From an uncultured Planctomycetota bacterium (GTDB lineage: Bacteria > Planctomycetota > Planctomycetia > Gemmatales > Gemmataceae), in NCBI GenBank assembly GCA_963849325.1, contig CAWKHF010000006.1:576001-640000 (forward strand): a DNA stretch of 64,000 nt, in the 5' to 3' direction. Positions 16,921 to 35,062 of the stretch are shown here, in pieces (position 1 is the stretch's first letter; every line of letters starts with the position of its first letter). The notes beneath the pieces were generated by a model. It had not been told where the DNA came from, did not search any database, and saw only the letters and a list, made by a program, of their open reading frames with translations. The position numbers and the translations under genes were made by a program.

Positions 16921-18409
16921 GTAGTCATTCACGGGCCAATTAGAGGTCAAGCGGCATGAGCATCAACGGCCGGGGTCAGCAACGACGGCAGGACGTGCCT
17001 TTCGGCGGCTGCCGCCAGGCACGCCGTCAGGTAATCCCATGCGCCCCGGCCCCGCTGACGGCACGTCTCCACCACCGACCAGATGCACGACAGGTACTCC
17101 CTGCCGTCCATACTCCGCGGGCCGTGACTCTGCTTCCGCCACAACACCCCATGACGCACCGCACGCTCCGCCGCGTTGTTCGTCGGCTCGACACCCGACA
17201 CGAACGCAAACAGGAACAACGACACCTCACACCCCAGCAGTTCGCGGCACACCGCTGCCGTCTTGGCGCAGCCGCACGCCGCCCCCCACGCCAAGACGGC
17301 GCGGAAGCGCACGCGAAAGTCCCGCGCGGCGTGCAGACGACCTGCGAAACGTATCTTCGTCAACGTCCCGTCACGCACGCGCTTCCACCAGCCCAGCATC
17401 TGCCCCGACAAGGCCAACAACTCCTCGCCGACCTCCACGCCGGCGTTCTTCCGGTCCACCATCGCCTGGAAGTCCCGCCGCAGGTGCGCCCAGCACAACT
17501 GATGGCGTTCGTCGGGCAGGTGGTCGTAGACGCGATAACGGTCGGTGGTCATCACGCGCCGGTAGTCCGTCCCTACCAGCCGGTCCAGCTCGCGGCGACT
17601 GCGGCCGCGGACGACCTGGTAAACGGTGGCCACCGCCGTGACCATCACCCACAGCCAACGCCCTCGACCCATCGATGTCTCCTCGACGTTGGCCGGTTGC
17701 TGCCGCGTCGCCGCCAGCAACTCGTCCACCGCCGGCCGCAGTTGCCGGCCGACCTCGGCCTCGATGGCGCAGACCTGTCCGGCCGACAGCGGCACGGCGA
17801 ACAGGTCGGTCAGCAGGCGGGCGGCCTTGGCCTTGCTCAGCCGGTAGGCGCCGGTCAACAGGGCGCCGGCGGCCTTCAGGCGTGGCCCGTCCTGGCCGGC
17901 CGGCGCCTGCCCGCAGGTGGTGACGCCGCAGCGGGGGCATCTCAGGCGGTGGCGACGGTACTCGGTGACGACGGGCCGGACGGCCGGCACGTCCCAGACC
18001 TGGTGACGTAGCGGCTGGGGGTCGTCGCCGCACAGCGGCAGCCGGCAGCGGCGGCAGGCCGTGGGTTTGCAGTGTTGGATGGCGTCGGGGTGGTCGGTAA
18101 GAGGGCGTTGGCTCTTGGCATGTCCAGTCTGCCCGCCGACCGCACGCCCGGTGGGCGGGCGGGGCGGGGCGCGTTTGACGGCGGGCGGATCGGAAGAGGG
18201 TGGCTTGGAGGAGTTGGTGGAGTTTTGGTTAAGGCGGGCTTCGAGGTCGGCGAGCCGTTGCTCGTAGTGCCGGATGAAGGCGCAGAGGGCAGCTTGGGCA
18301 GCCGGAGGGATTTGCTGCCACAGTTCGTCAGGGATTGGCGGAGCTGCGCTCATGCAGCTGACGTAGCGATCACGCTAGGACTTGGCAACCTCGCCCCGTG
18401 AATGAGTAC
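16921..18409 (-). mobile_element. IS66-family element (single-ORF type)
   Basis: 15-bp inverted repeats with 1 mismatch (gtagtcattcacggg / cccgtgaatgagtac); no flanking direct repeat. Confidence 0.85.
16947..18353 (-). CDS. IS66-family transposase
   Basis: NSTNSSKPPSSD, Cys zinc motifs, QLCWAHLRRDF and TNNAAERAVR motifs. Confidence 0.92.
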   Translation of the reverse strand: MSAAPPIPDELWQQIPPAAQAALCAFIRHYEQRLADLEARLNQNSTNSSKPPSSDPPAVKRAPPRPPTGRAVGGQTGHAKSQRPLTDHPDAIQHCKPTACRRCRLPLCGDDPQPLRHQVWDVPAVRPVVTEYRRHRLRCPRCGVTTCGQAPAGQDGPRLKAAGALLTGAYRLSKAKAARLLTDLFAVPLSAGQVCAIEAEVGRQLRPAVDELLAATRQQPANVEETSMGRGRWLWVMVTAVATVYQVVRGRSRRELDRLVGTDYRRVMTTDRYRVYDHLPDERHQLCWAHLRRDFQAMVDRKNAGVEVGEELLALSGQMLGWWKRVRDGTLTKIRFAGRLHAARDFRVRFRAVLAWGAACGCAKTAAVCRELLGCEVSLFLFAFVSGVEPTNNAAERAVRHGVLWRKQSHGPRSMDGREYLSCIWSVVETCRQRGRGAWDYLTACLAAAAERHVLPSLLTPAVDAHAA

Positions 18410-20870
18410 GACGTACGGGTCTCCGGCGTCGCCCGTCTGCGATGGGTTCGGCTGGGCGATGAACGTCTGGTTGACGTGATTCTGCGGATGATCGCGCTCG
18501 ACCACCGTGCCCAGGCCCAGGTACTTGTAGCTCTCCAGCGTGCCCGTGCCGTCCGACAGCGACGACAAGCGGCTGATACTGCTGTCCAGGCCGCTGGCGT
18601 AGTTGTAGTAGACGACATAACCGCTGGGGTAGACCAGTTGCGTCAACCGGCTGTTGTTCTGACCGCCGGACATCTCCGTGTAACCGTACTGCACCTCCGG
18701 CGTCGTGCCCGGAACCACCGCGCCGCTGTGCGACTGATACTCGCCGGTCAACTGACCCAGGCCGTTGTACACGTCCTGCACCTGGTTGACGATGTTGCCG
18801 CCGCTGGGCGCGTCAAAGCTGGTGATTAGCGCCAGGTTGCCCTGGCTATCGTAGCCGTACTCGATACGGCGCACCGAGCCGTCCACGCCCGCACCCAACG
18901 TCGTCACGGCGTCGGAAGTCAGCCGTCCCAGCACGTCATAGGTATACTGATGGACGTTGCCGTTGCGGTCGGTGGACTGCACCACCTCTCCCAGCGCGTT
19001 GACCAGGTAGCTGTCTTGCTGGCTGCTGCTGGGAGCGCCCGTCGTCGGATCGGGATGCTGGATCGCCGACAGAATGTCATTGCTGTTGACGCCGCTGCCG
19101 CTGGCGGTGGTCACGCCGTAGACGTACTGCGTCTGCTGATAGGCGCCGCCCGGTTCGTCGGCACGCACATAGGTCACATTGTTGTCGCCGTCGTAGCCGT
19201 ACTCGGTGGCGATATTGCTGTCGTCGGTCTCGGTGCCGTCGGTGTAGTCCTGAATGGTCTTCGTGGTGCGGCCCAGGTTGTCGTACAGCGTGCGCGTGAC
19301 GAGGTCCATCGGGTCGGTCACGTCCTGCACCAAACCCATGTCGTTGTAGGCATACGTCGTCACCAACGCCGTCGCCGACGCGGCCGGCGGCGTGTCCGGC
19401 CGCGTCCAAGCCACGCCGCCGTTGGTGCCCATGTCCACGTCGGCGATTAGACGATCCGCATTGTCGTAATAAGCGGCCGCATAGTACACTCGCGCCCCAA
19501 TGCCGCTCGTCGGACTGCCCAGCGGACCCGTCCCCGTGGCATCGTCGAAACGCTGACTGTCCATCGTCTCGATGGCGTTGCCGTCGCCGTCGTAGACCGT
19601 CTGCTCTTGCTCCAACACCGTGTCGTTGGCCACGCTGGCCGCGTCCGCCCAGGTCGTACCGCCCGCACCGTCCGTCGTGAAATCCATCACGTCGCGGCCA
19701 GCACCATCATACTGGCTCTTGGTCCATAGCCCGCCCGGCCCGACTCAGCGATCAAATCGCCGCGATGATCGTAGTAATCGTTGGTAGTCAAGGCTGTGCT
19801 CGACACCGCCCCCGTGCTCGGGTTCACGTCGTAAACTTGCGTCTGGTAGACACGGCCCTGATCGTCGTAGCTGTCGATCTCCTGAGCACGCAGCAGATTG
19901 GACGCCAGCGCTTGCAGCACACCATTGAGAATCTGCGGCGTCACGCCGTCGCCGTCGTACTGCTGCGTCTCAATGGTTTCGCCGAGATTGTCGTAGGTGG
20001 TAACGACGATGGGCCGATGGGTGCCGTCGTTCTCGCTGGACTGCACGCCGGACTTGGTGGCCACCAGCCGGTCACGCCAGTCGTACCACATCTGCGTGAT
20101 ACGCTCCGCTTCGCCCAGGCCGGGATAGTCCGTCTCTTGCGTCAAGTTGCCATCGCCGATGCCGCCGTTGTCGTACTGGTAGCTCGACACCATCACCATG
20201 TTCGACGTGCCGGTGTTGTTGTTCGGCGACCATTCGCCGTACTCCGGCGTGTCATTGGTGCCGACCCAATCGCTGAGGGGCTCGCCCAGGCTGTTGTACA
20301 CCGTGCGGTAAATGGTGCCGTTGGCCGTCTGCGTCCGCACCAGACGACCGCCGCTGTCGTAGCCGTACTGCGTCTGGTAATAGTTGACGTTGAGCGTGCC
20401 CATCACGCCGGTCGTGTAGGCCAGACCGCCCAGGTTGAAGTACTGATCTTCGGCGATGACCTGGCCGGCGTCGTTGGTGTAGTCCCGAGTGAGACTTTGC
20501 AGACCGCTGATAGCTTCGCTGCCGTTGGGCGTGCCGTCGGGATTGAGGTTGGGCGTCGCCGTCATGGTGAAGGTTTCATCGTAGCCGTCGGCGGCGTCCT
20601 CGCGGATGACCTCGGTGGGGCCGGTCGGCGTGCCGGTGCTGGCGTTCCAGCCCGGATAGATGCGTTCTTCGTGCTGCGGGTCGAGATAGACGTAGTAGGT
20701 GATGTTGCCATCGGGCGAGGTCTCTTTCGTGGTCCGCCCCGCGCGTCCACCTGATACTGCGTCACCAGGTTCAGGCCGCCGCCCGTCGGCGTGCTCCAGC
20801 CCGCCGGCAAGTTCGTGAACTCACTGGTGTCCGCCGTGTTCACGTCCTGGATCTGCGTCAGCAGGACACG
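18410..20870 (-). pseudogene. Orphan Rhs/YD core module 2, truncated by IS66, several frameshifts
   Basis: Near-copy of the Rhs core from ...DVNTADTSEF to ...GDAGDPYV; no start codon; indels near 19740, 20570 and 20737. Confidence 0.85.
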
Positions 20871-21066
20871 CGGCGGCTCGCAGGGGTTGCATGACGTGCC
20901 CTGGGGCAGCGGCGACAGCCGCGCCGCCGAGATGCTGCGTGTGCTCAAGGCCAAGGGGTTCAAGGGACCGATCGCCATCGAGTACGAATGGAAGTGGGAC
21001 ATTCCGACGCTGCTCCAGTGCGTCGCGTTCTTCCACGAGCAGGCCAACAAGCTCGCCGCCGAGTGA
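20871..21066 (+). pseudogene. 3' fragment of a sugar-phosphate isomerase/epimerase (TIM-barrel) gene, copy 1
   Basis: HDVPWGSGD...LKAKGFKGPIAIEYEW...*; near-identical to 27025-27220. Confidence 0.7.
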
Positions 21067-21076
21067 TCCGCTGGAG

Positions 21077-21180
21077 AAAGGTGTCAGGAACCTTTTAAGG
21101 TCTTAAAAGGTTCCTGACACCTTTTCTCTTCCCTTTTCTCTTCCTTTTCTCTTCCCTTTTCTCTTCCCTTTTCTCTTCTT
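21077..21180. repeat. Palindrome GGTGTCAGGAACC...GGTTCCTGACACC plus pyrimidine microsatellite
   Basis: Arms 21077-21099 / 21102-21124, followed by ttctcttcc(c)ttt tandem units. Confidence 0.85.
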
Positions 21181-21203: not shown

Positions 21204-22697
21204 TCACGGACGCAGAGGCTTCTTGTTCTCGGCCTTCTTCATCCTCGCCGCGGTCGGAACGCGCAGGGAGGGGGCAAGACGAGCGCATTCTTCCAGATCC
21301 CGCTTGGCCTCTTCTGCCTTGCCCAATGCGGACAAAGCCACGGCTCGATCTGCATAAGCCAGCACATCCGAGGGATAATGCTGTACTGCTTCCGTTAACT
21401 CGGCGATAGCATCGTTCCATCGCCCTTGCATCAGATAGCAATGCCCCCGCAGCGAGAGCAGGCCGGTGGTATCGCTCTGCCCTTGGCTTAATTCCTTGAG
21501 TTCGTGGAGTGCCTGGTCCACTTCACCGAGACTCGCCGAGGCCCATGCATGTAACTGGCGAGCGAAGGTGTCTTTCGGGTCTAACTGAAGCGCTGCCTTG
21601 GCATCCGCCAAGGCTTCTCGATACTTGCCTAACCATATATTGACATGAGCCCGGCAAGTAATCGCCTCAGGATATTTGGGATCTAACTCGAGACATCGGC
21701 AGAGGTGACTGACTGCCTCGTTCGTATCCTTCCCCGCTATCCATTTGCCTAGCAAAAAGTGAGCTGTGGTCAACCGAGGGTTCAGTTCGATAGCCTTTCG
21801 CAGATCGGCGATCGCCTCCTCCAAAGTCCCCGCGATGAACTTGACGTTGGCGTACAACAGTGTTTCCCCTGCGGTGTGGGGACGTTGCTTGGAGACCTCT
21901 TCGAGTGTAAATTCCCGGTAGGGTTCGTGGAATCGGTACAGTTCCAGGCATGTTCGTTTGAATCTACGCCAATTTCCCTCCGCCAGTTGCAACGCCTGTT
22001 CAGATCGGCGCACGGCCTCATCCCAGTGACCGGCCTCCGCGTGGGCCGCCGCGAGTCTACTCAACGAGGGATACTCCTCGCGTCCCACCTGCTTACAATC
22101 CTCGCGAGCATACTCGACCGCACGTTGGCCGTCTCGAATCGCTGTCTCCGGACATGTCGCTAGTAGCTGCGCCAGGGCAGCCGCGGTGGGATTCTTGCCA
22201 CCCCGTTCGTAGGCGCGTTCGAGGTCCGCCCGCTCTTTGGCATACTGGTGTAGACCTCGGTAGATTCGAGCCCGGTTGTAATAGCATGCTGGATTGTCCG
22301 GCTCTATCCGAATGCCCTCGGTGAAATCGGCGAGGGCGGTCTCCCAGTCCCCCCGTAGTGAATACACGGCTCCTCGGTTGGCATAAACGGTGTATCGTCG
22401 GGAGCCGCGCTGGATCGCCCGGGTGTAGGCATCAATGGCCCGATCACCATCTCCTAGCTTTACACAGGCATGACCCAGCAGTTCATGGAGGTCGGGGTCG
22501 GACGGGTCAGACCGCAAGGCCGTCTCTAGCACGGAACGGGCCTCCCGATATTCGCCATGCCGCATGAGCTCCGCCCCTCGCCCATAAGCTGCCCGCGCGC
22601 CCCCCAGGAAACCTACTATCGTCTGCTGAGCAAAGCCGCATTTGGTCAGCGATAAGACGATGAGGGCCAGCAGGAAAGCGTTCCCCAGACGGTGCAT
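21204..22697 (-). CDS. Secreted TPR-repeat protein (partner of orphan Rhs module 1)
   Basis: Signal peptide, multiple TPR motifs, LATCPETAIRDGQRAV motif; GGAGG SD. Confidence 0.85.
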   Translation of the reverse strand: MHRLGNAFLLALIVLSLTKCGFAQQTIVGFLGGARAAYGRGAELMRHGEYREARSVLETALRSDPSDPDLHELLGHACVKLGDGDRAIDAYTRAIQRGSRRYTVYANRGAVYSLRGDWETALADFTEGIRIEPDNPACYYNRARIYRGLHQYAKERADLERAYERGGKNPTAAALAQLLATCPETAIRDGQRAVEYAREDCKQVGREEYPSLSRLAAAHAEAGHWDEAVRRSEQALQLAEGNWRRFKRTCLELYRFHEPYREFTLEEVSKQRPHTAGETLLYANVKFIAGTLEEAIADLRKAIELNPRLTTAHFLLGKWIAGKDTNEAVSHLCRCLELDPKYPEAITCRAHVNIWLGKYREALADAKAALQLDPKDTFARQLHAWASASLGEVDQALHELKELSQGQSDTTGLLSLRGHCYLMQGRWNDAIAELTEAVQHYPSDVLAYADRAVALSALGKAEEAKRDLEECARLAPSLRVPTAARMKKAENKKPLRP

Positions 22698-22854
22698 GAT
22701 CCTCCTCCCCAAGAAAGGACTTTTTGGGCCATTCTCCTACGAGGGGCGATGTAGCGAATGTCCCTTCCGTGCGTCAAGACCTAATGCCAAGTCTCCAGGC
22801 CAGTACTCGCCAGGCATCAGCTTGACCGTCGAGCACTGTTGCGAGTTAGGTCCA

Positions 22855-25800
22855 TCAACGCCGATTGGATCCTCGTCCCCGCCACCAAACCCCGCCTCCG
22901 CCAAACTGGCAGCCAAGCCCGAAGTAGCCGCTGCCTTCCTTCTTCGTGGATCCTCCGATTGGGGATCCCTGATAAAATCCCCCCACGTTTGTACCAGGAA
23001 GCGAGTAGATACTGCCGGGTGGATACATGCCTGGCGGCAACGCCCCTGAAAGAGTAGGGCTGGTAGGCGGCTGCGGAGGCTCCCCCACAGTGATTGGCCG
23101 AGATCCTGAGGGAGGGTAATTCGGCCATGCCGTCCCACCGTATCTATGCGGCGCATAGCCTCCCTGCAGAGGGTTCGGTCCCACATAGCCATTGAACGCA
23201 CGAGGTGGCTCTGGGGTCAGTTTCCGAGGCGGACCCAAAATGACCGAGGTCGTGCCGGGCGGACTTTCTGTCTCGCACGCCGTCCATTGGACCCTCTGAA
23301 TGACCGTGATCTTGTTGCGCGGCAGCGAGGGAGGTAGCGCGGTAACCCTTGCGATGGGAATCTGGATCACAGGCGGCGTGGTGCCAAGGACGCCGATCAT
23401 GGTGCTAGGAGGAACAAATCGAACTCCACCCACGTCAATCACGACATGGCCGATGAGGACGGCTGTTGGGTCGCCGAAATCGAACTGTCTGGGCGGTTGG
23501 GGTTGCGGTTTCGGACCCACCCGCCTCCAGTTCGGGGGGAGAGGCGACAATCCCAGTGGATCGAGCGCATCCGTCGGTCCATTGTCCTCCCAGCGGTAGA
23601 CGTTGTTGCCAGGTATCAACCCCAGCGGATCCACTTGCAGCGGCCGCATCAGTGTAGGCGACACGACGCGGCCGGAGAAGGTGGAATACAGGCCCACTGT
23701 CGATTCGTAACGCATCCCCTGCCACAAGTACGGCATAGCGTAGACGCTGCTGTCCCGTACCGAGAAATCCGGGTTCAATACCGTCACCGCACCGAAGGGG
23801 CTATAAGCGTAGCGCTCGACCACGTTACCGCCGACATCGACCAGTGTCGTCACGTTCCAGTTGGCGTCCTGTTGCACGTACAGGTGCTGATCCAAAACGC
23901 CGTTGCCCTGGCTCGATTGGTCGCGCAGCACCAAGGCGTTGACGTACACTGGACTCCACACGTTGCGTGCCTCCACCGCGCCGCCGACACGTTCCTCCAA
24001 CACCTGCCCCGCCGACGACAGGTACAGGTCGGTCGTCGTGCCGCCGTGCGTCTCCGTGATGCGGCGGCCTAAGCCGTCATAGCCATAAGCGGCGACCGTC
24101 GTACCGTTGTTTTGCACGGCCACCAACTGGTTCCAGGCATCGTAGACATAGGTGTTGCCGCTGCCGTCCGCCGTCAGATTGCCGTTGGCATCATACGTCA
24201 CCGCTCCCGCACCCGAAATCGACGTGACCTCGTTCTGCTGGTTGAACGTCTCCGTCTGCGTCACGCCGTTGGTCGTCGTGCTGGTGAAGTTACCCAGCGC
24301 ATCGAGAGACCAACTCTGACTCGCCGATGGCGTACCCACTATCGCCGTATTCGTGGAATTCAACGTGCCTTGCTGGTAGCTGATGAGTTCGTTCAGATCG
24401 TTGTACTGGTACAACTGGCTCATCACCGCATCGACGAGGTTCTGCTTATACAGCACGTCGCCGTCCGCGTCGTAGCCGTACTGGAAATCATCCGTCGATT
24501 GCTGCGTCGCCGTGTCGTACCAATTCTGACTGACTATCCTCCCAAAACGGTCCAAACCCACATAGCGGTCGCCCGCATCGCCCGTCTGCGACTGGTTCGG
24601 CTGGGCTATGAACGTCTGGTTGACGTTGGTCTGCGGATGGTCGCGCTCGACCACCGTGTCCAGGCCCAGGTACTTGTAGCTCTCCAGCGTGCCCGTACCG
24701 TCCGACAGCGACGACAGGCGGCTGATGTTGCTGCCCAACCCGGTGGCGTAGTTGTAGTAGACGACATAGCCGCTGGGGTAGACCAACTGCGTCAGTCGGC
24801 TGTTGTTCTGGCCGCCGGACATCTCGGTGTAACCGTACTGCACCTCCGGCGTCGTGCCCGGCACCACGGCACCGCTGTGCGACTGATACTCGCCGGTCAA
24901 CTGGCCCAGGCCGTTGTACACGTCCTGAACCTGGTTGACGACATTGCCGCCCGTTGGCGCATCGTAGCTGGTGGTCAGGTAGTTGTTGCCCTGGCTGTCG
25001 TAAGCGTACTCGATACGACGCACGCGGCCATCGACGCCAGCGCCCAACGTCGTCACGGCGTCCGAGGTCAAGCGCCCCAGCACGTCGTAGGTGTACTGGT
25101 GGACGTTGCCATTGGGGTCGGTGTACTGCACGGTCTGACCCAGGGCGTTGACCAGGTAACTGTCCTGATCGCTGTTGCTGGGATTGCCCGTCGTCGGGTC
25201 GGGGTGCTGGATCGCCGACAGAATGTCATTGCTGTTGACGCCGCTGCCGCTGGCCGTCGTCACGCCGTAGACGTACTGCGTCTGCTGATAGGCGCCGCCC
25301 GGTTCGTCGGCACGCACATAGGTCACGTTGTTGTCGCCGTCGTAGCCATACTCGGTGACGATGTTGCTGTCGGCGGTCTCGGTGCCGTCGGTGTAGTCCT
25401 GGATCGTCTCGGTGGTGCGGCCCAGAGCGTCGTAGTAGGTGCGATTGACGATCCCCATCGGGTCGGTCACGTCCTGCACCAAACCCATCGAATTATACGC
25501 ATACGTCGTCACCAACGCCGTCGCCGACGACGGCGGCGGCGTGCTCGGCCGCGTCCAGGCCACGCCGCCGTTGGTGCCCATGTCTACGCTGGCAGTCAAG
25601 CGATCCGCATTGTCGTAATAAGCGGCGGCATAGTAGACGCGCGCTCCGATGCCGCTGGTTGGATCGCCCAAAGGCCCGGTGCCGGTGGCGTTGTCGAAAC
25701 GCTGACGGTCGATGGTCTCGATGGCATTGTCGTCGCCGTCGTAGACGGACTGCACTTGCTCCAGCACCGTGTCGTTGGTCACGCTGACGGCGTCCGCCCA

Positions 25801-27022
25801 GGTCGTGCCGCCCGCACCGTCGGTGGTGGAATCCATCACGTCCCGGCCGGCGCCATCAAACTGGCTCTTGGTCCACAGCCCGCCCGGATCGGACTCGGCG
25901 ATGAGGTCGCCGCGATGATCGTAGTAATCGTTGGTGGTCAACGCCGTGCTCGACACTGCACCCGTGCTCGGGTTCACGTCGTAAACCTGCGTCTGGTAGA
26001 CGCGGCCCTGGTCGTCGTAACTATCGACCTCTTGCGCCCGCAACAGCGACGGGTCCAACGCTTGCAAGACACCGTTGACGACCTGCGGCGTTACGCCGTC
26101 GCCGTCGTACTGCTGCGTCTCAATCGCTTCACCGAGATTGTCGTAGGTGGTGACGACGATGAGCCGATGGGTGCCGTCGTTCTCGCTGTCCTGCACGCCC
26201 GACTTGGTGGCCACCAGCCGGTCCCGCCAGTCGTACCACATCTGCGTGATGCGCTCCGCTTCGTCCAGGCCGGGATAGTCCGTCTCTTCCGTCAGGTTGC
26301 CGTCGTCGACGCCGCCGTTGTCGTACTGGTAGCTCGACACCATCACCATGTTCGACGTGCCGGTGTTGTTGTTCGGCGACCACTCGCCGTACTCCGGCGT
26401 GTCGTTGGTGCCGACCCAATCGCTGACGGGCTGGCCCAGGCTGTTGTACACCGTGCGATAGATGGTGCCGTTGGCCGTCTGCGTGCGCGTCAAGCGGCCG
26501 CCGCTGTCGTAGCTGTACTGCGTCTGGTAATAGTTGACGTTGAGCGTGCCCATCATGCCGGTGCTGTAAGCCAAGCCACCGAGGTTGAAGTAGTTGTCCT
26601 CGGCGATGACCTGGCCGGCGTCGTTGGTGTAGTCCCGAGTGAGACTTTGCAGACCGCTGATGGCTTCGCTGCCGTTGGGCGTGCCGTCGGGGTTGAGGTT
26701 GGGCGCCGCCGTCATGGTCAGCGTCTCGGTGTAGCCGTCGGCGGCGTCCTGGCGGATGACCTCCGTCGGTCCCGTCGGCGTGCCGGTGCTGGCGTTCCAG
26801 CCCGGATAGATGCGTTCTTCGTGCTGGGCGTCGAGGTAGACGTAGTAGGTGACGTTGCCATCCGGCGAGGCCTCTTTCGTGGTCCGTTCCTGGTCGTCCA
26901 CCTGATACTGCGTCACCAGGTTCAGGCCGCCGCCCGTCGGCGTGCTCCAACCCGTTGGCAAGTTCGTGAACTCGCTCGTGTCCGCCGTGTTCACGTCGGC
27001 AATCTGCATCAGCAGGGCACCT
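22855..27022 (-). pseudogene. Orphan Rhs module 1: core plus Pro/Gly-rich C-terminal tip
   Basis: Open frame with YD repeats, RHS-core motifs (YAYSPFG, QVDPLG, WEDNGPTDALDPLGL) and a 230-aa tip; lacks a native 5' end. Confidence 0.85.
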
Positions 27023-27024
27023 GG

Positions 27025-27220
27025 CGGCGGTTCGCAGGGGTTGCATGACGTGGTCTGGGGCAGCGGCGACAGCCGCGCCGCCGAGATGCTGCGCGTGCTC
27101 AAGGCCAAGGGGTTCAAGGGACCGATCGCCATCGAGTACGAATGGAAGTGGGACATTCCCACGCTGCTCCAGTGCGTCGCGTTCTTCCACGAGCAGGCCA
27201 ACAAGCTCGCCGCCGAGTGA
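27025..27220 (+). pseudogene. 3' fragment of a sugar-phosphate isomerase/epimerase gene, copy 2
   Basis: HDVVWGSGD...IAIEYEWKWD...NKLAAE*. Confidence 0.7.
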
Positions 27221-27228
27221 GCCGCTCC

Positions 27229-27282
27229 GAGAACGGTGTCAGGAACCTTTTAAGACCTTAAAAGGTTCCTGACACCGTTCTC
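27229..27282. repeat. Perfect palindrome with 26-bp arms, same family as 21077
   Basis: gagaacggtgtcaggaaccttttaag-ac-cttaaaaggttcctgacaccgttctc. Confidence 0.9.
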
Positions 27283-27325
27283 TTTCTTTTCTCTTTCCTT
27301 ACTGACAACTTTTCCTCCCTTCTTT

Positions 27326-28093
27326 TTATTTTCGTGGCCGGAGATACAAATCGAGTGTTGAAAAATCAATGATGGCTCGGTATTTCATCAAAACATCTGA
27401 ACCAAGCTCTCCATCAATCGGCGGATCGAAGTACGCCTTAAGGGTTCTATTAACATCTGACAAGTCGTGTCCCCCAACCAACATTTCGCCGCTCTTGATC
27501 CCCCCCACTTCCAGACTGCTAATCGTGGCGGCATAATCGGTGGTTGACGCAGCTCCGCGAGGCTTATTCTTTTCCTCTTCCTTGCCCACAGCTTTCCATT
27601 TTAGCTGTAGATGCTTCGTCCGCTCAGGATCCAAGTGAGTCACCGGCTGCCCGCTATCCAGAATGAGGTGTACTTTCTTTTCATTAATCTGCATCCGAAT
27701 CCCAATATATCCGCAGTTGAATTTTTCGAGAAGAATCTTTTCGTACCCGTACTCCTTCAAAAGTGTGGAGATCTCCCTCGGTCGTTCATTTCTCCATAGG
27801 CCTGCCAGATTATAAGGAGCGGTCTTCAGCCATAACTGAGATGCCTCCTTTTCCGAATCGATTTTCAAGATTGGAAGCCAGATAGCATTCCCATTATCCT
27901 GCCTGCGGAGCATCCACGTCTTCCCATGATGCGGATCAAGCATCAGTGCGCAGTCCCCAGCATGCTGTACAATGTACCTCGTATTCGAATTCTCAGGTTT
28001 CGGGGAGACATCCTGAGATCGCAGTGCAAGGAGCCAACTCCCGAAGGCGAGGGATACGATCACCACAATGAGAGACACTCGTTGACAAGACAT
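27326..28093 (-). CDS. Secreted retropepsin-like aspartyl protease family protein (partner of full-length Rhs)
   Basis: N-terminal hydrophobic segment; LILDSG and IDGELGSDVL...IIDF motifs; low GC. Confidence 0.75.
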   Translation of the reverse strand: MSCQRVSLIVVIVSLAFGSWLLALRSQDVSPKPENSNTRYIVQHAGDCALMLDPHHGKTWMLRRQDNGNAIWLPILKIDSEKEASQLWLKTAPYNLAGLWRNERPREISTLLKEYGYEKILLEKFNCGYIGIRMQINEKKVHLILDSGQPVTHLDPERTKHLQLKWKAVGKEEEKNKPRGAASTTDYAATISSLEVGGIKSGEMLVGGHDLSDVNRTLKAYFDPPIDGELGSDVLMKYRAIIDFSTLDLYLRPRK

Positions 28094-28157
28094 CTTAGAT
28101 CTCCAATGCTAACTTCTCGAAACAGAAAGACGCCTTTTTACAACCCCAAAGGGTGGC

Positions 28158-31100
28158 TTATATGATAATTGGCGGCGGGTTCGGCGGCGGCGGCGGTGGT
28201 GGTATCGGTGGCCACCCACGAGGGAGAATCGGAGGTAACGGTGGAATGCATCCCGGAGGGATACGCGGGATAGGGAATGCACGTGGATTAGGAATAGGCA
28301 GCAAAGGGAATGGCGGAACAGGTAACCAGATCCAATTTGGTGGGGGTGGTACGGGCCGCAGTGGGACAGGCCTCGCCCCTGGTGGTAGAAATCCTCTCCC
28401 TATTCGTCCGCCAATCCCTCCTGGCATACCTGGCGGTAACGGTATTGGCCGTCCAGGTAAATTCCTCCCTGGTGCTGGACGAGGGGGTGGCGGCGGCGTG
28501 ACCTCACCACCTGGCCCCGGCGGCACATTATAATAGGCGTCTGACAGAGCTCCCGCCTCATATGGGCGGATCGACGACTGTCCATCTAGGCCTGTCGAGT
28601 CCACCATATCCATCGGCCTATTATTCTCCCAGCGGTAGTAGTCGTTGTCTGGCCCCAACCCCGCGTAGTCTGGCTGCAACGCCCGCATCAACGCCGGCGA
28701 CACCGGGCGGGTGAGCGTGAGATATAGCCCAGCGTAACTATCGATGCGCATGTCCTGGGAGCCGTAGGGCACGGCGAAGGCGCTTATGCCGCGCAGCGTC
28801 CCATCGGGGTTGAGCACCGTCACGGCCCCGAAAGGATCATCGGCGTAACGCTCCAGCACGTTGCCAGTGCCATCGACCAGCGCCGTCACGTTCCAGTTGG
28901 TGTCCTGCTGCACATACAGCCGTTGGTCCAGGACGCCGTTGTCCTGGCTCGACTGGTCGCGCAGCACCAGGGCATTGACGTACACCGGACTCCACACGTT
29001 GCGCCGCCTGTACCACGCCGCTGACACGCTCCTCCAGCACCTGTCCCGCCGCCGACAGGTATAGGTCCGTCGTCGTGCTGCCATGCGTTTCCGTGATGCG
29101 ACGGCCCAAGCCGTCATAGCCATAGGCAGCCACCGTCGTGCCGTTATTCTGCACCGCCACCAGGCGGTTCCATGCATCGTAGACGTAGGTATTGCCGCTG
29201 CCGTCCGCCGTCAGATTGCCATTGGCGTCATACGTCACCGCACTCGAACCCGAGATGGACGTGATCTCGTTCTGCTGATTGGTCGTCCGCGTCTGCGTCG
29301 CGCCGTTGGTGGTCACGCTGGTGAAATTGCCCAACGCATCAGGAGACCAACTCTGGCTCGCCGATGGCGTACCCACCATCGCCGTATCTGACGCATTCAA
29401 CGTGCCACGCTGGAAGTTGATGAGCTGGTGCAGGTCGTCATAGCCGTACAGCTCACTCATCACGGCATCGACGAGGTTTTGCTTGTACAGCACGTCACCA
29501 TCGGCGTTGTAGCCATAGCCGAAGTTGTCGGTCGATTGCTGCGTCGCCGTGTCGTACCAATTCTGACTGGCCACTCGCCCGAAACGGTCCAGACCGACGT
29601 ACCGGTCGCCCGCATCTCCCGTCTGTGACTGGTTCGGCTGGGCAATGAACGTCTGGTTGACGTGGTTCTGCGGGTGGTCGCGCTCGACCACCGTGTCCAG
29701 GCCCAGGTACTTGTAGCTCTCCAGCGTGCCGCTGCCGTCCGACAGCGACGACAGCCGACTGATGCTGCTGTCCAGGCCCGTGTTGTAATTGTAGTTGACG
29801 GCGTAGCCGCTGGGATAGACCAACTGTGTCGGCCGGCTGTTATTCTGACCGCCGGACATCTCCGTGTAGCCGTACTGCACCACCGGCGTGGTGTTGAAGT
29901 TGACCGGGCCGTTGTGCGACTGATACTCGGCCGTCAGCTGCCCCAGGCCGTTGTAGGTCCGCTGCACCTGATTGACGATGTTGCCACCCGTCGCCGCGTC
30001 GTAGCTGGTGATGAGATAGTTGTTGCCCTGGCTGTCGTAGCCGTACTCAATGCGGCGTACCGAACCATCCACGCTGGTGCCCAGGGTCGTCACGGCGTCG
30101 CTGGTCAGCCGGCCCAGCACGTCATAGGCGTACTGGTGGACGTTGCCGTTACGGTCGGTGGACTGTACCACCTCTCCCAGCGCGTTGACCAGGTAGCTGT
30201 CTTGCTGGCTGCTGCTGGGAGTGCCGGTCGTTGGATCGGGATGCTGGATCGCCGACAGAATGTCGTTGCTGTTGACGCCACTGCCGCTGGCGGTGGTCAC
30301 GCCGTAGACGTATTGCGTCTGCTGATAGGCGCCGCCCGGTTCGTCGGCACGCACATAGGTCACATTGTTGTCGCCGTCGTAGCCGTACTCGGTGGCGATG
30401 TTGCTGTCGGCGGTCTCGGTGCCATCGGTGTAGTCCTGGATCGTCTTCGTGGTGCGGCCCAGGTTGTCGTACAGCGTGCGCGTGACGAGGCCCATCGGGT
30501 CGGTCACGTCTTGCACCAGACCCATGCCATTATAGGCATACGTCGTCACCAACGCCGTCGCCGACGCGGCCGGCGGCGTATCCGGCCGCGTCCAGACCGT
30601 GCCGCCGTTGGTGCCCACGTCCACGTCCGCCGTGATACGATCCGCTGCATCGTAGTAGGCCGCCGCATAGTACACGCGCGCACCAATGCCGCTCGTCGGA
30701 TTGCCCAATGGCCCCGTGCCCGTGGCATTGTCGAAACGCTGGCTGTCAATCGTCTCGATGGCGTTACCGTCGCCGTCGTAAACCGTCTGCTGTTGCTCCA
30801 GCACCGTATCGTTGGCCACGCTGCCTGCCGCCGACCAACTCGTGCCGCCCGCACCGTCGGTGGTGGAGTCCATCACGTCGCGGCCGACGCCGTCGAACTG
30901 GCTCTTGGTCCACAAGCCGCCCGGAGCGGACTCCGCCAGCAAATTGCCGCGATGGTCGAAGTAATAATTCGTTGCCAGGGCCGTGCTGGATACAGCCCCC
31001 GTGCTCGGGTTCACGTCGAAGACTTGCGTCTGATAGACGCGGCCCTGATCGTCGTAACTATCGACCTCCTGCGTCCGCAGCAGATTGGACGCCAACGCTT

Positions 31101-34100
31101 GCAGCACACCGTTGACGATCTGCGGCGTCACGCCGTCACCATCGTACTGCTGGGTCTGGATCGCCTCCCCGAGATTGTCGTAGGTGGTGACGACGATGGG
31201 TCGATGCGTGCCGTCGTTTTCGCTGGCCTGCACGCCCGATTTGGTGGCGACGACGCGATCGCGCCAGTCGTACCACATCTGGGTAACGCGGTCGGCCTGG
31301 CCCAGTCCCGGCGAGTCGGTCTCCTGCGTCAGGTTGCCGTCGCCGACGCCGCCGTTGTCGTACTGGTAGCTCGACACCATCACCATGTTCGACGTGCCGG
31401 TGTTGTTGTTCGGCGACCATTCGCCGTACTGCGGCGTGTCGTTGGTGCCGACCCAATCGCTGACGGCCTCGCCCAGACTGTTGTACACCGTGCGGTAGAT
31501 GGTGCCGTTGGCCGTCTGCGTTCGATCGAGACGACCGCCGCTGTCGTAGCCGTACTGCGTCTGGTAATAGTTGACGTTGAGCGTGCCCATCACGCCGGTG
31601 CTGTAAGCCAGGCCGCCCAGGTTGAAGTAGTCGTCCTCGGTGATGACCTGACCGGCGTCGTTGGTGTAGTCCCGAGTGAGACTTTGCAGACCGCTAATGC
31701 CTTCGCTGCCGTTGGGCGTGCCGTCGGGGTTGAGGTTGGGCGCCGCCGTCATGGTCAGCGTCTCGGTGTAGCCGTCGGCGGCGTCCTGGCGGATGACCTC
31801 CGTCGGTCCCGTCGGCGTGCCGGTGCTGGCGTTCCAGCCTTGATAGATACGCTCCTCGTGCTGCGGGTCGAGGTAGACGTAGTAGGTGACGCTGCCGCCG
31901 GGCGACGTTTCCTTGATGGTGCGTCCCAACGCATCCACCTGGTCCGTCGTCACCAGGTTGAGGCCGCCGCCCGCCGGCGTGCTCCAACCCGTCGGCAGGT
32001 TCGTGAACTCGCTCGTGTCGGCCGTGTTGACATCGGCAATGCTCGTCACCAGCGCTCCCGTCAGCGGATCGTAGGCGTCATACTGGAGGTAGCCGTCGGG
32101 GTCTTGTACCCAGATAGGGTCTCCATTCGTATCGAAGACAGTCGTTGTCACGTCGGCCGTGCCCGGACCATTCTGGGCCGACGAGATGACCGGCGCGCTC
32201 ACCGTCTCCGAGTGCACCTCGGCCGTGCCGGTGTACCAGGTGTAGGCGTAGGAAGTCGTCTCGGCGCCGCTGCCGTCGCTGTTGCGATACACCGTGTCCG
32301 TGGCGATGGGCGCGAGGGTCTGACCGTTGAAAGCGTGGGCGTAATACTGCCAGGTCTCTTGCGGAATGAGCGTGCCCTGCTGACCCTGCTGAATCTGCTC
32401 GTCTTCGAGGTAGCCGGCCACGCCGCCCGCCGTCGTCTCCGTCGCCGTCGTCGTTGTGTAGTAGGCGTAGCGCGTGATCAGGCCGCTCGTATTGTTGAGA
32501 TACGGATAGTTGCCATTGCCGTTGCCCACCAGGCCGGCGTCGTAGTAGCTGTAGCCGCTGACGGCCGATGGCGCCGCTTGCAGGATGAGCTGGCCCTGGT
32601 CGTTGTAGGCGTAGAAGTTGTCCGTATCGAGGCCGCTGACCGGATCGTAGTGATCGACGAGCATGGTCTGGCCGTAGGCGTTGGTATAGACCGTGTCGCT
32701 GCTGCCGTCGGGATTGGTCACGCCCGTTTGCATCGCCCAGCTGTTGAAGCCGGGGGCGTTGTTGCTGGCGGTGTAGCTGAAGGTGTAGGTGCCCAGCCCG
32801 CCGCTGCTCGTGGAATCGCCCGCGCCTTGGGCCACTTCCCGGGTGACACGCTGCTGGCTGTCGTACTGGAAGTAGTTATCGGCGTAGGGGGCCACCTGCG
32901 CGTCGGTGAGGTCGCCGAGGTCGGTGCCCAGGGCGGCGGTCAGTCGGGTGTAGGAGGCGGGGTTGAAGACGTACTCCAGACCGCCGGCGTAGCCGTCGGC
33001 CTGTCCGTCGGTGTAGTAGCGGTAGTAGCTGGTGGACAGGACGTTGCCCTGACCGTCGAGGACGCTGGCGGTCATGAGATCGCCGAGGCTGCCGCCGTAC
33101 TGCTGGCTGCCGTCGTAGTAGCTGTACTGGACCTGCTGCACGGTGGTCCAGGCGCCGCCGTTGGTCTGCTGCCGCAGGGTCACGCTTTGGAGCAGGCCGG
33201 CGTTAGGGTCGGTGGAAGGCAGGTAGCTGTACAGCCACGATTCGGTGACGGTGTTGCCGTTGCTGCTGCCCGAACGCTGCATCGCGGCGATGTGGCCGTC
33301 GGCGGTGTAGGCGGTGACGGCCATGGTGACGCCGTTGGCGTCGGTGTAACTCTGGAATTGGCCCTGCTGGGCGGCTGGCCGGCTGGAGTCGAAGCCATCG
33401 AAGACGATCTGATCGCCCTGGCCGTCGATCAGCGTGTAGGTATCGTTGCTTCGGTTATAAGTTAGGTTCGAGGGATCGCGGAACCGTACCTGGTAGGTGC
33501 CGTCACCCTGGCTGTCGAAGTAGTAAGCGGTGGTGCCGTTGGCGAGGACGGCGAGGGTGTTGTTGGTCTCGCCGTCGGCCCGGACGAGGTGCGGCGTATA
33601 GGTATCGAGCCAGCCGGAGCCGTTGTCGGAGCCGGTGGCGTAGCCGGGGCCGTTGCTCCAGGAGCGCGTCTGTCCCCAGGCGAAGCCGAAGGCGTCGGAG
33701 TGCAGGTCGGTCTCGGCGATGTTCACCACGCCATCGGCGTAGCGCACCGGGAGAGGAGTCAGGATCGGGGGCGTTGTTTGGACGGCAGGCCCACCCGTGT
33801 TTGCGTCGCCAGGTGTGTAGGTGGCGGCGTTAGTATTGGCGGTCAATTGCACCAGGCTGCCGGGCTGGTTGGGGCAACCGCAGTTGCAGCTGGGTCCAGG
33901 GACGAAGGGCGTCGGCGTGGGAGTCGGAGTGGGCGTCGGCGTCGGGGTGGGCGTTGGAGTCGGCGTGGGCGTGGTAACGTCGGCCGAAGTCGCGAACGAG
34001 GTTTGGCTGCCGCCTACATCCGTAATGGTCACGCTGATCGGGTAGGAGCCGGTAGCGGCGTAGGTGTGCGTGCCATCGACGTAGAATTCGCTATCGTTTT

Positions 34101-34986
34101 TTTGCGGATTGTAGCCGCCCGAGGCGGTGCCCGGCGAGGTCTGCCCGTCGCCCCAGTCGATCTGGATGGTGTAATCGCTGGCAGGGGCTTCGGGGTTGTC
34201 ATCCGCGAAGAGGCCGACCGGACCGCTAAAGGGCACGCCGGCGGACATGGGGATAGTCTCGGAGTCGCTCGAATGCAAGGCGGCGTCGCTAACGACGGCG
34301 GTATCCGAGGCAGTAAGGGGGCCGCTTGGCCCGCTGACGCTGATGGAGATGGGATAGGTGCCCTCGTCGTCATAGGTCATGCTGCCATACACATAAATGG
34401 TAGTGGCGGTAACGGTGGGGTATTCGGTCGTGGTTTGGCCGTTGCCCCAATCGACGGTGGCGGTGTCCTGATCATTGGGGTTACCGTCGGGGTTGGAGAA
34501 AGTGGCCAGCGTCACGCCATAATTTTCGGCTCCTTCGACGAAGTTGAGGGTGGACGACGGGTCGTCGGCCGGCGTCATGCTGGTGCTGGCCGATTTGGTC
34601 GCCGGGGACCGGAGATGTCCTGGGACGGCCGCCGCATTCGAGGCGATCTTCGGCTCCGCCGTAGGGGTTAATGCTTCCCCGATGGCGGCCGTTTGCATCG
34701 GACTCGCGTAAACACTCTGGACAGCCGGGGTGGAGAGTGGATGGACCGGGCTGCCGGATTCATGGACGTTGTAAGCTTGCTCGGCGAAGGGAGTCGCGGA
34801 GGGCACCAACCTCGCTTCCAGGAACTCGATTTCGAGGAAGACGCGGCGGCGCCGGCGGGGCGACAGGAAGACGCGGCGCGAGAGGATGCGCGAGTCTTTG
34901 AGCCAGTAGCGCCAGGCTGCCCAGGCGTTGGCGAGCCAGTCAGACGGACGAAGATGGACGCGGAGCGAACGCTTCCAGCGCATCAT
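28158..34986 (-). CDS. Full-length Rhs/YD-repeat protein (~2270 aa; 1-nt frameshift near 29004)
   Basis: LEIEFLEARLVPS motif, two PKD-like (DWGNG/DWGDG) domains, (TP)n linker, CNCGC, long YD core, WENNRPMDMVDSTGL boundary, 142-aa polyproline-rich tip. Confidence 0.88.
33908..33975 (-). repeat. Thr-Pro coding tandem repeat (linker)
   Basis: [23 protein letters not shown] in the Rhs translation. Confidence 0.85.
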
Positions 34987-35062
34987 CGGTGCGGTCCTCG
35001 CGGGTGAGAGATCCCCTCGGGTCACCGGTCTCGAAGTAATGAGGAAAGACTAACGAAGAAGT

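Follow-up and report, generated by a model that had tools for sequence, protein, structure and literature searches.

What does an Rhs protein carry when more than a third of its C-terminal tip is proline and no known domain can be recognised in it? The question is raised by an Rhs gene, here called Rhs1, in a 64,000-nucleotide stretch of DNA from an uncultured bacterium of the Gemmataceae (Planctomycetota; assembly GCA_963849325.1, contig CAWKHF010000006.1, positions 576,001 to 640,000). This whole stretch is the window, and coordinates given without a contig are positions in it. Rhs and Tc shells are regarded as carriers of enzymes or pore-formers, and an initial annotation of the window, made by eye from the letters, had described the tip as a Pro/Arg-rich chain that might represent a new effector class. 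We find that the tip is best explained as a genuine Rhs cargo, acquired by lateral transfer, disordered and without a catalytic function, a reading to which we assign a probability of roughly 0.45. It is a singleton so far, in an error-prone assembly.

The tip spans 142 codons on the minus strand (28161-28586), directly after ...NRPMDMVDSTGL, with its stop codon at 28158-28160. Counts agree with the description of a sequence dominated by Pro, Arg, Ile and Gly: there are 54 Pro (38%), 17 Gly (12%), 14 Ile (10%), 11 Arg (8%; more exactly 7.7%) and 10 Leu, and all four strings that had been quoted are present. The first 28 residues have an ordinary composition and include all four acidic residues. 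Pro-rich sequence begins 21 residues past the DSTGL site that ends the Rhs core, and residues 29-142 comprise 50 Pro, 33 Ile/Leu/Val/Phe/Trp/Met and 10 Arg but lack Lys, Asp and Glu altogether. Tandem Repeats Finder detected only a 26-nt GGC run (28171-28196) in the tip and no longer unit.

The tip is foreign to its host. Its GC content at third codon positions (GC3) is 0.46, against 0.83-0.84 in the Rhs core, and in 20-codon windows the drop falls exactly at DSTGL; of the Pro codons, 32 of 54 in the tip end in A or T, compared with 19 of 105 in the core and about 16% genome-wide (1817 long open reading frames (ORFs) of high GC3). Both the host-atypical codons and the start of the tip at a boundary of the DPxGL type, which the initial annotation had pointed out, are thus borne out, with the foreign composition setting in at DSTGL. 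Such a switch in GC and codon usage at the core/tip boundary is described as general in Rhs proteins in excerpts of an earlier account (PMC8636562). CC occupies codon positions 1-2 in 54 codons of the tip register versus 4 and 11 in the other registers, which amounts to strong three-base periodicity of the coding type, and the frame stays open in 389 of 20,000 mononucleotide shuffles of the tip.

The tip reading is further supported by its continuity with the Rhs core. It is in frame with the C-terminal core, the aspartyl-protease plug (28587-29012, minus), which ends DYAGL-x18-DSTGL, and the TIGR03696 match on this plug ends exactly at DSTGL. Plug and tip share an ORF at 28158-29177 (minus), whose frame differs from that of the main Rhs1 ORF as assembled (28837-35025, minus; 2062 codons). 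The latter holds YD repeats (PF05593, E 7e-7; TIGR01643, E 1e-6), a (PT)n linker and a PKD match that is weak and below threshold. The Rhs1 core is 84-88% identical to three paralogous cores of its own genome, and the plug is 65-71% identical to paralogues and orthologues. With the indel between the two frames discounted, full-length Rhs1 would comprise about 2288 residues, and we infer that it is translated in the tip frame.

No fold is predicted for this chain. The tip matched no Pfam family, no NCBIfam match lay inside it, a search of the ESM Atlas gave no usable match, and AlphaFold2 run without an alignment returned a model with a predicted local distance difference test score (pLDDT) of 65.6, a predicted template modelling score (pTM) of 0.13 and no helix or strand element; the earlier statement that it has no recognisable enzyme fold therefore stands. 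Searching with phmmer against 1.84 billion representative proteins produced 0 matches, none of 3076 candidates scored when the tip was compared with longer proteins, and its own genome together with 200 family genomes yielded only low-complexity noise at E ~1e-3. A relationship between this tip (tip1) and that of the neighbouring Rhs2 (tip2) was tried and rejected (BLASTP best E 0.11). A new effector class would need recurrence, and none was found among the 1.84 billion proteins or the 200 family genomes, so that this proposal is at present hypothetical. Nor can conservation of the reading frame in relatives, to which the initial annotation had looked for a decision, be shown for the tip. The absence of homologues is nevertheless weak evidence, because the two other tips of the same genome also match 0 of the 200 family genomes.

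To place the tip among its kind, we gathered from Gemmataceae genomes the tips that follow 92 matches to the Rhs plug (30 loci, 60 further table entries that reach the query end and the three of the genome itself) and scored 91, one tip of 27 residues being dropped. Sequence entropy is 3.16 bits in the tip versus a median of 4.02 among the 90 others, and its longest acid-free stretch is 114 residues versus at most 103 in other tips. The GC3 of 0.46 is ordinary for a tip, the median being 0.53 in 89 other family tips, and 28 of 31 tips scanned had no Pfam match, with one of the three matches spurious. No Pfam match, low GC3 and no homologues are thus normal for Gemmataceae Rhs tips and should not flag novelty in them. 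Pro-rich openings recur: in 7 of 89 tips, Pro accounts for at least 20% of the first 40 residues.

Tips L096, L040 and L120 (genomes G043, G069 and G105) are short, Gly/Ala-rich or Gly-rich and hydrophobic, and are reminiscent of glycine-zipper membrane peptides; they appear to be non-globular, non-enzymatic cargoes in the same Rhs family, which makes such cargoes plausible here. The third full Rhs gene of the genome with the window (designated G000) carries tip L007 (G000:C6:803169-803942), at the start of which a duplicated PIDWGRID-x-IF motif is followed each time by a Gly run and then by a more complex part of about 150 residues, without a Pfam match and with 0 of 200 family genomes matching.

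Whether the tip could be released depends on the plug, for which the Rhs pattern is PxxxxDPxGL, the two DPxGL motifs being spaced 17-18 residues apart. In excerpts of the published description, Rhs cleavage follows two DPLGL motifs, the second of which supplies the catalytic Asp (PMC8636562). The cleavage region of Rhs1 reads P-MDMV-DSTGL, preceded by DYAGL-x18, where its counterpart in Rhs2 reads DPLGL-x18-DPLGL; both motif Asp residues are retained and both motif Pro residues are replaced. Of the 91 scored tips, 3 others have D-S-x-G-L and 7 have D-[A/G/F]-x-G-L, and judging from these sequences DSxGL is natural variation. A first motif lacking Pro is also found in same-genus orthologues (DFVGL in L017, DYLGL in L018), and Pro loss in DYAGL was for that reason dropped as a sign of decay. 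The Rhs1 plug differs at 10 of 62 conserved columns, at the high end of the range of 0-11. Overall, it appears divergent, not clearly dead.

These features suggest the following course of events. The Pro-rich stretch would be the translated C-terminal tip of the full-length Gemmataceae Rhs protein, and would have arrived laterally as a cassette made up of a core 3' end, the tip, the gene of a retropepsin-like membrane protein and a terminator hairpin. As a disordered Pro/Ile/Leu-rich chain, cationic, free of acidic residues past its first 28 and devoid of a catalytic domain, it could be held unfolded within the YD-repeat shell, as other Rhs and TcC cargoes are. The plug aspartyl protease, in which Asp is present at both catalytic positions, would then cut after DSTGL and release the tip, so that any activity would have to be one of binding or of insertion into a membrane, since the chain offers nothing for catalysis.

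A number of observations weigh against this account. Tip and plug are out of frame with the main Rhs1 ORF as assembled, and the roughly five frame breaks per 8 kb of rpoBC in the same assembly mean that the tip itself may contain errors. No homologue that might reveal purifying selection on the tip turned up in the proteins and genomes searched. The TIGR03696 match on the plug scores 25.5 bits with a cut-off of 32.5, which 6 of 6 comparators pass, and the cleavage motif has lost its Pro. The genome, of 65% GC, contains 70 open frames with a 142-residue window of at least 30% Pro, so a Pro-rich open frame is in itself unremarkable there. The two closest homologues of the partner gene downstream whose context was seen (G185 and G177) are not near Rhs genes. 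Finally, the initial annotation had proposed surveying the Pro content of Rhs tips, and in the Gemmataceae sample this tip turned out to be a lone outlier, at 38% versus a maximum of 20.4% in the 90 others (median 6.4%).

An alternative is that the tip is a toxin-less remnant, a Pro-rich leader whose catalytic part was lost or never gained and which is made but inert. Pro-rich leaders do precede more complex sequence in tips L110, L035, L006 and L107, as well as in YenC3 of Yersinia entomophaga; at 142 residues the tip is shorter than the median of 210 for 85 complete tips; the sub-threshold plug would fit such a history; and an IS66 insertion together with a broken third core shows that the locus is in flux. 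Against a remnant, no deletion scar or leftover domain fragment can be seen, the ORF ending 64 nt before the next gene. CCN periodicity is even across all 142 codons and not confined to a leader, and the cassette partner is still clearly conserved (42-69% identity in 11 homologues). We regard a remnant as unlikely, although among the alternatives it is the one that survives best.

A more radical objection is that the tip is not translated as read, either because the gene carries a true frameshift and is a decaying pseudogene or because assembly indels inside the tip have created a chimeric frame, with the Pro frame a by-product of CCN/GGN sequence. Compared with Rhs2, Rhs3 and one orthologue, Rhs1 has one extra base near 29003-29007 (minus), in a GC-rich, non-homopolymer context. 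The assembly from which it comes, in 14 contigs with a marker completeness of 84.7%, shows the same kind of damage in essential genes: rpoC matches its model in three frames, with two changes between them, and rpoB shifts frame at least three times (G000:C1:334900-343100), and rpoC aligns in three frames to the single 1479-residue RpoC frame of a complete relative (G003). The junctions between these frames are likewise GC-rich and non-homopolymeric, as near 29005 in Rhs1. Because rpoB and rpoC are broken in the same way, the Rhs1 frameshift near 29005 is probably an assembly error and is no argument for decay. The same error rate means that the tip sequence itself cannot be guaranteed. Frequent indel errors require care with any frameshift or pseudogene call in this genome.

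The number of Pro-rich open frames genome-wide, the lack of homologues and the visibly broken third Rhs copy all lend some weight to this objection. The remaining two minus-strand frames across the tip nevertheless contain stops, and a shift of frame would alter composition, yet Pro richness is unbroken along the whole tip. The 6.2 kb of Rhs1 upstream of the break also stays open. That the tip is an artefact or a pseudogene is in our judgement improbable.

The 255-residue product of the gene in the partner slot (27326-28093, minus; GC 0.49) combines an N-terminal membrane helix with a conserved N domain and a retropepsin-like domain, the latter carrying a DSG motif. It has 11 homologues, in which the Asp (Asp146 of the protein) is invariant, with Gly replaced by Ala in 2 of the 12 family members. 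The partner itself scores 21.8 bits with the retropepsin-like Pfam model (cut-off 28.2), and both PF13650 and PF13975 match 12 of 12 members at E <=0.01, the best E being 5e-6. A profile search of the PDB returned ApRick alone (E 0.25), and the AlphaFold2 model is of low confidence (pLDDT 56.7). The gene thus appears to belong to a conserved family of membrane-anchored retropepsin-like proteins. Low GC is typical of this family, one homologue having 0.50 versus 0.605 in its flanks. That tip and partner might be one ORF split by an error was considered and rejected: the two do not share a frame, and the homologues of the partner have its starting Met and its membrane helix. The N-terminal part (residues ~5-90), in which GKTW-LR and WLPI-KIDSE motifs occur, is also matched independently of the rest in several Gemmataceae genomes (G113, G008, G046 and G073) and may be a separate, unnamed domain.

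The downstream gene had been assumed to be the cognate partner of the tip, and it does sit in the immunity slot of the cassette. The family matches in 20 family genomes. Of the two closest homologues, both of the same genus, whose context was read, neither has Rhs genes nearby; one lies between oxidoreductase-like and kinase genes and the other beside unrelated genes. A search for related loci added one distant locus in metagenome contigs and one genome-contig locus that is the G185 place, giving no new context. Prediction of a complex of two protease domains with the tip scored 0.01 (mark 0.32), which is no evidence either way. Only the position of the gene, then, would suggest an immunity role. 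Retropepsins accept X-Pro bonds, and one could imagine that the tip is a new, non-enzymatic kind of cargo, toxic either because it enters the envelope or because, like Pro-rich antimicrobial peptides, it binds a chaperone or the ribosome, and that the partner, as an extracytoplasmic membrane-anchored protease, confers immunity by cutting the toxin; we consider this compound scenario very doubtful.

A eukaryote-directed function has an even slimmer chance. Here the tip would be a ligand for modules of the SH3, WW, EVH1 or profilin type in a grazer or host, and it does contain 7 overlapping PPPP, 25 PxxP and 13 PPxP motifs. FH1-like targeting has been speculated for the YenC3 leader by its authors, in the excerpts of their report (PMC11067744). 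No TssC gene for the sheath of a type VI secretion system (T6SS; PF05943) was found in the genome at its completeness of 84.7%, and export of Rhs1 is therefore probably not via that system. The Pro motifs are, however, expected by chance at 38% Pro, no partner or effector domain is attached for such a ligand to localise, and no eukaryotic target is known for the organism.

On the plus strand opposite the tip lies a Gly-rich mirror ORF (28153-28533; 126 residues), which we judged not to be the gene. It is open and has ATG and GTG starts, and a sigma-70-like match lies at 28137-28166, although this match overlaps the start codons and a single site compares with 1.4 expected in shuffles. Since tip and mirror ORF have their third codon positions in common, GC3 does not distinguish between the two readings. 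Homologues were sought without success: none of 113 word-sharing candidates scored, matches in the 200 family genomes were limited to 2 at E ~1e-4 to 1e-3, and no Pfam family was found; a relationship to the Gly-rich tip3 was rejected (BLASTP best E 22). Third-position skew is G 0.32/C 0.13 for the tip on the minus strand, close to the G 0.34/C 0.20 of the co-oriented cassette gene, and G 0.13/C 0.32, opposite to that neighbour, for the mirror reading. That the mirror ORF is the real gene and the Pro frame its antisense shadow is highly improbable, because the Pro reading continues the Rhs core and fits the skew of its neighbour, and the mirror reading would leave the core without a tip where some tip must follow.

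The reading of the tip as an acquired cargo gains its setting from the rest of the locus, which is a three-unit Rhs displacement array. On the minus strand, the first unit consists of the Rhs1 core, tip1, the 255-residue gene and a hairpin; the second of a 200-nt junction, a partial Rhs2 core, tip2, a gene for a 502-residue tetratricopeptide repeat (TPR) protein and the same hairpin; and the third of the same junction and a third partial core, behind which lies an IS66-family transposase gene. The terminator-like hairpin, with a perfect 20-bp stem, closes the tip1 cassette at 27232-27279 and recurs at ~21077-21124. An Rfam scan of 26800-29200 gave only sub-threshold matches of microRNA models on the hairpin and none in the tip. 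The junction segment (27024-27226, plus) recurs at 20870-21072, and each partial Rhs core begins directly next to it. It is a copy (95% identity) of the 3' end and terminator of an intact 309-residue gene on another contig of the genome (G000:C7:353349-354275), and the end of an unrelated gene has, on this comparison, become a cassette junction. The hairpin/junction segment is also present at G000:C7:353290-353543, and a 20-nt exact match lies at G000:C5:388424.

The orphan Rhs2 (22855-27204, minus) has a partial core from ~27026, the intact DPLGL-x18-DPLGL and a 230-residue tip at 22858-23547; the TPR protein (21204-22712, minus) fills the partner slot of its cassette. The third partial core (18350-20877, minus) is divided among three successive ORFs and is truncated by the IS66-family transposase gene (16947-18353, minus; NF033517, E 1e-77). 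Both partial cores start at one core point, equivalent to ~32063 in Rhs1. The shared junction, hairpin and core start point fit the model of C-terminal displacement, in which Rhs loci have a stacked-tip layout, as set out in excerpts of its source (PMC2935791). Under that model, tip1 and the 255-residue gene would be the newest cassette, in the expressed position.

At the other end of Rhs1, the N-terminal region (33900-35025, minus) opens with an Arg-rich segment, after which come LEARLVPS, a weak PKD-like match and a linker of the (PT)12 type. It contains neither a PAAR nor a VgrG domain, and no T6SS context was seen. Elsewhere in the genome, a cluster of long ORFs carries very long (PT)n tracts, with up to 71 Pro in 142 residues (G000:C5:134000-159000 and G000:C1:498000-502000), pointing to a possible family of giant surface proteins in which PT tracts serve as linkers.

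If a disordered Pro-rich chain is indeed the sole cargo of Rhs1, it would widen the view of what Rhs and Tc shells deliver. Should the partner protease protect against the tip, this would be a new immunity mechanism, by proteolysis and not by stoichiometric binding. Independently of either proposal, long-read assemblies in which rpoB and rpoC are broken make for unreliable frameshift calls.

Comparison with known systems shows how much of Rhs1 is familiar. Judging from excerpts of two accounts (PMC8636562, PMC2935791), it has in common with canonical Rhs toxins a YD shell, a two-motif plug, a tip of foreign GC, a downstream gene and orphan modules. It differs from them in its DSTGL/DYAGL motifs, in the absence of any PAAR, VgrG or T6SS context seen and in a tip without a domain. 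Whereas the canonical Rhs partner is a small binding protein, the partner here appears to be membrane-anchored and retropepsin-like. Animal proline-rich antimicrobial peptides span some dozens of residues, about a quarter of them Arg, and are characterised by transporter-dependent uptake and by binding to the ribosome or DnaK. The likeness to such peptides that the initial annotation had drawn holds for high Pro, positive charge, an acid-free stretch and RPxP-type motifs (4 matches); it fails for length (142 residues), Arg content (7.7%) and the many Ile, Leu and Trp residues. The Gly-rich tips L096, L040 and L120 are low-complexity and non-globular like this tip, but they are Gly/Ala-rich, not Pro-rich, and have no detected similarity to it. 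Our literature search brought up no publication that deals with Rhs proteins of Gemmataceae or with an Rhs cargo made of polyproline alone, and in the portion of Zhang et al. 2012 available as text (PMC3482391) the word 'proline' is absent.

The nearest described case is YenC3, for which excerpts of the report (PMC11067744; structure named as PDB 6aqk) describe four PPPPPPMMGGN repeats straight after the Rhs self-cleavage site and then an ADP-ribosyltransferase. Like the tip, this leader is a Pro-rich, presumably polyproline-II segment behind a self-cleavage site, and the YenC3 cargo is packed unfolded in a YD-repeat shell to which Rhs1, known here from its sequence, may be likened. The excerpts give YenC3 tandem 11-residue repeats and a globular ADP-ribosyltransferase of about 230 residues; the tip has neither, and is far more hydrophobic (Ile, Leu, Trp) than the leader as described there. 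By analogy, then, the Rhs1 tip looks like a leader of the YenC3 type with nothing behind it.

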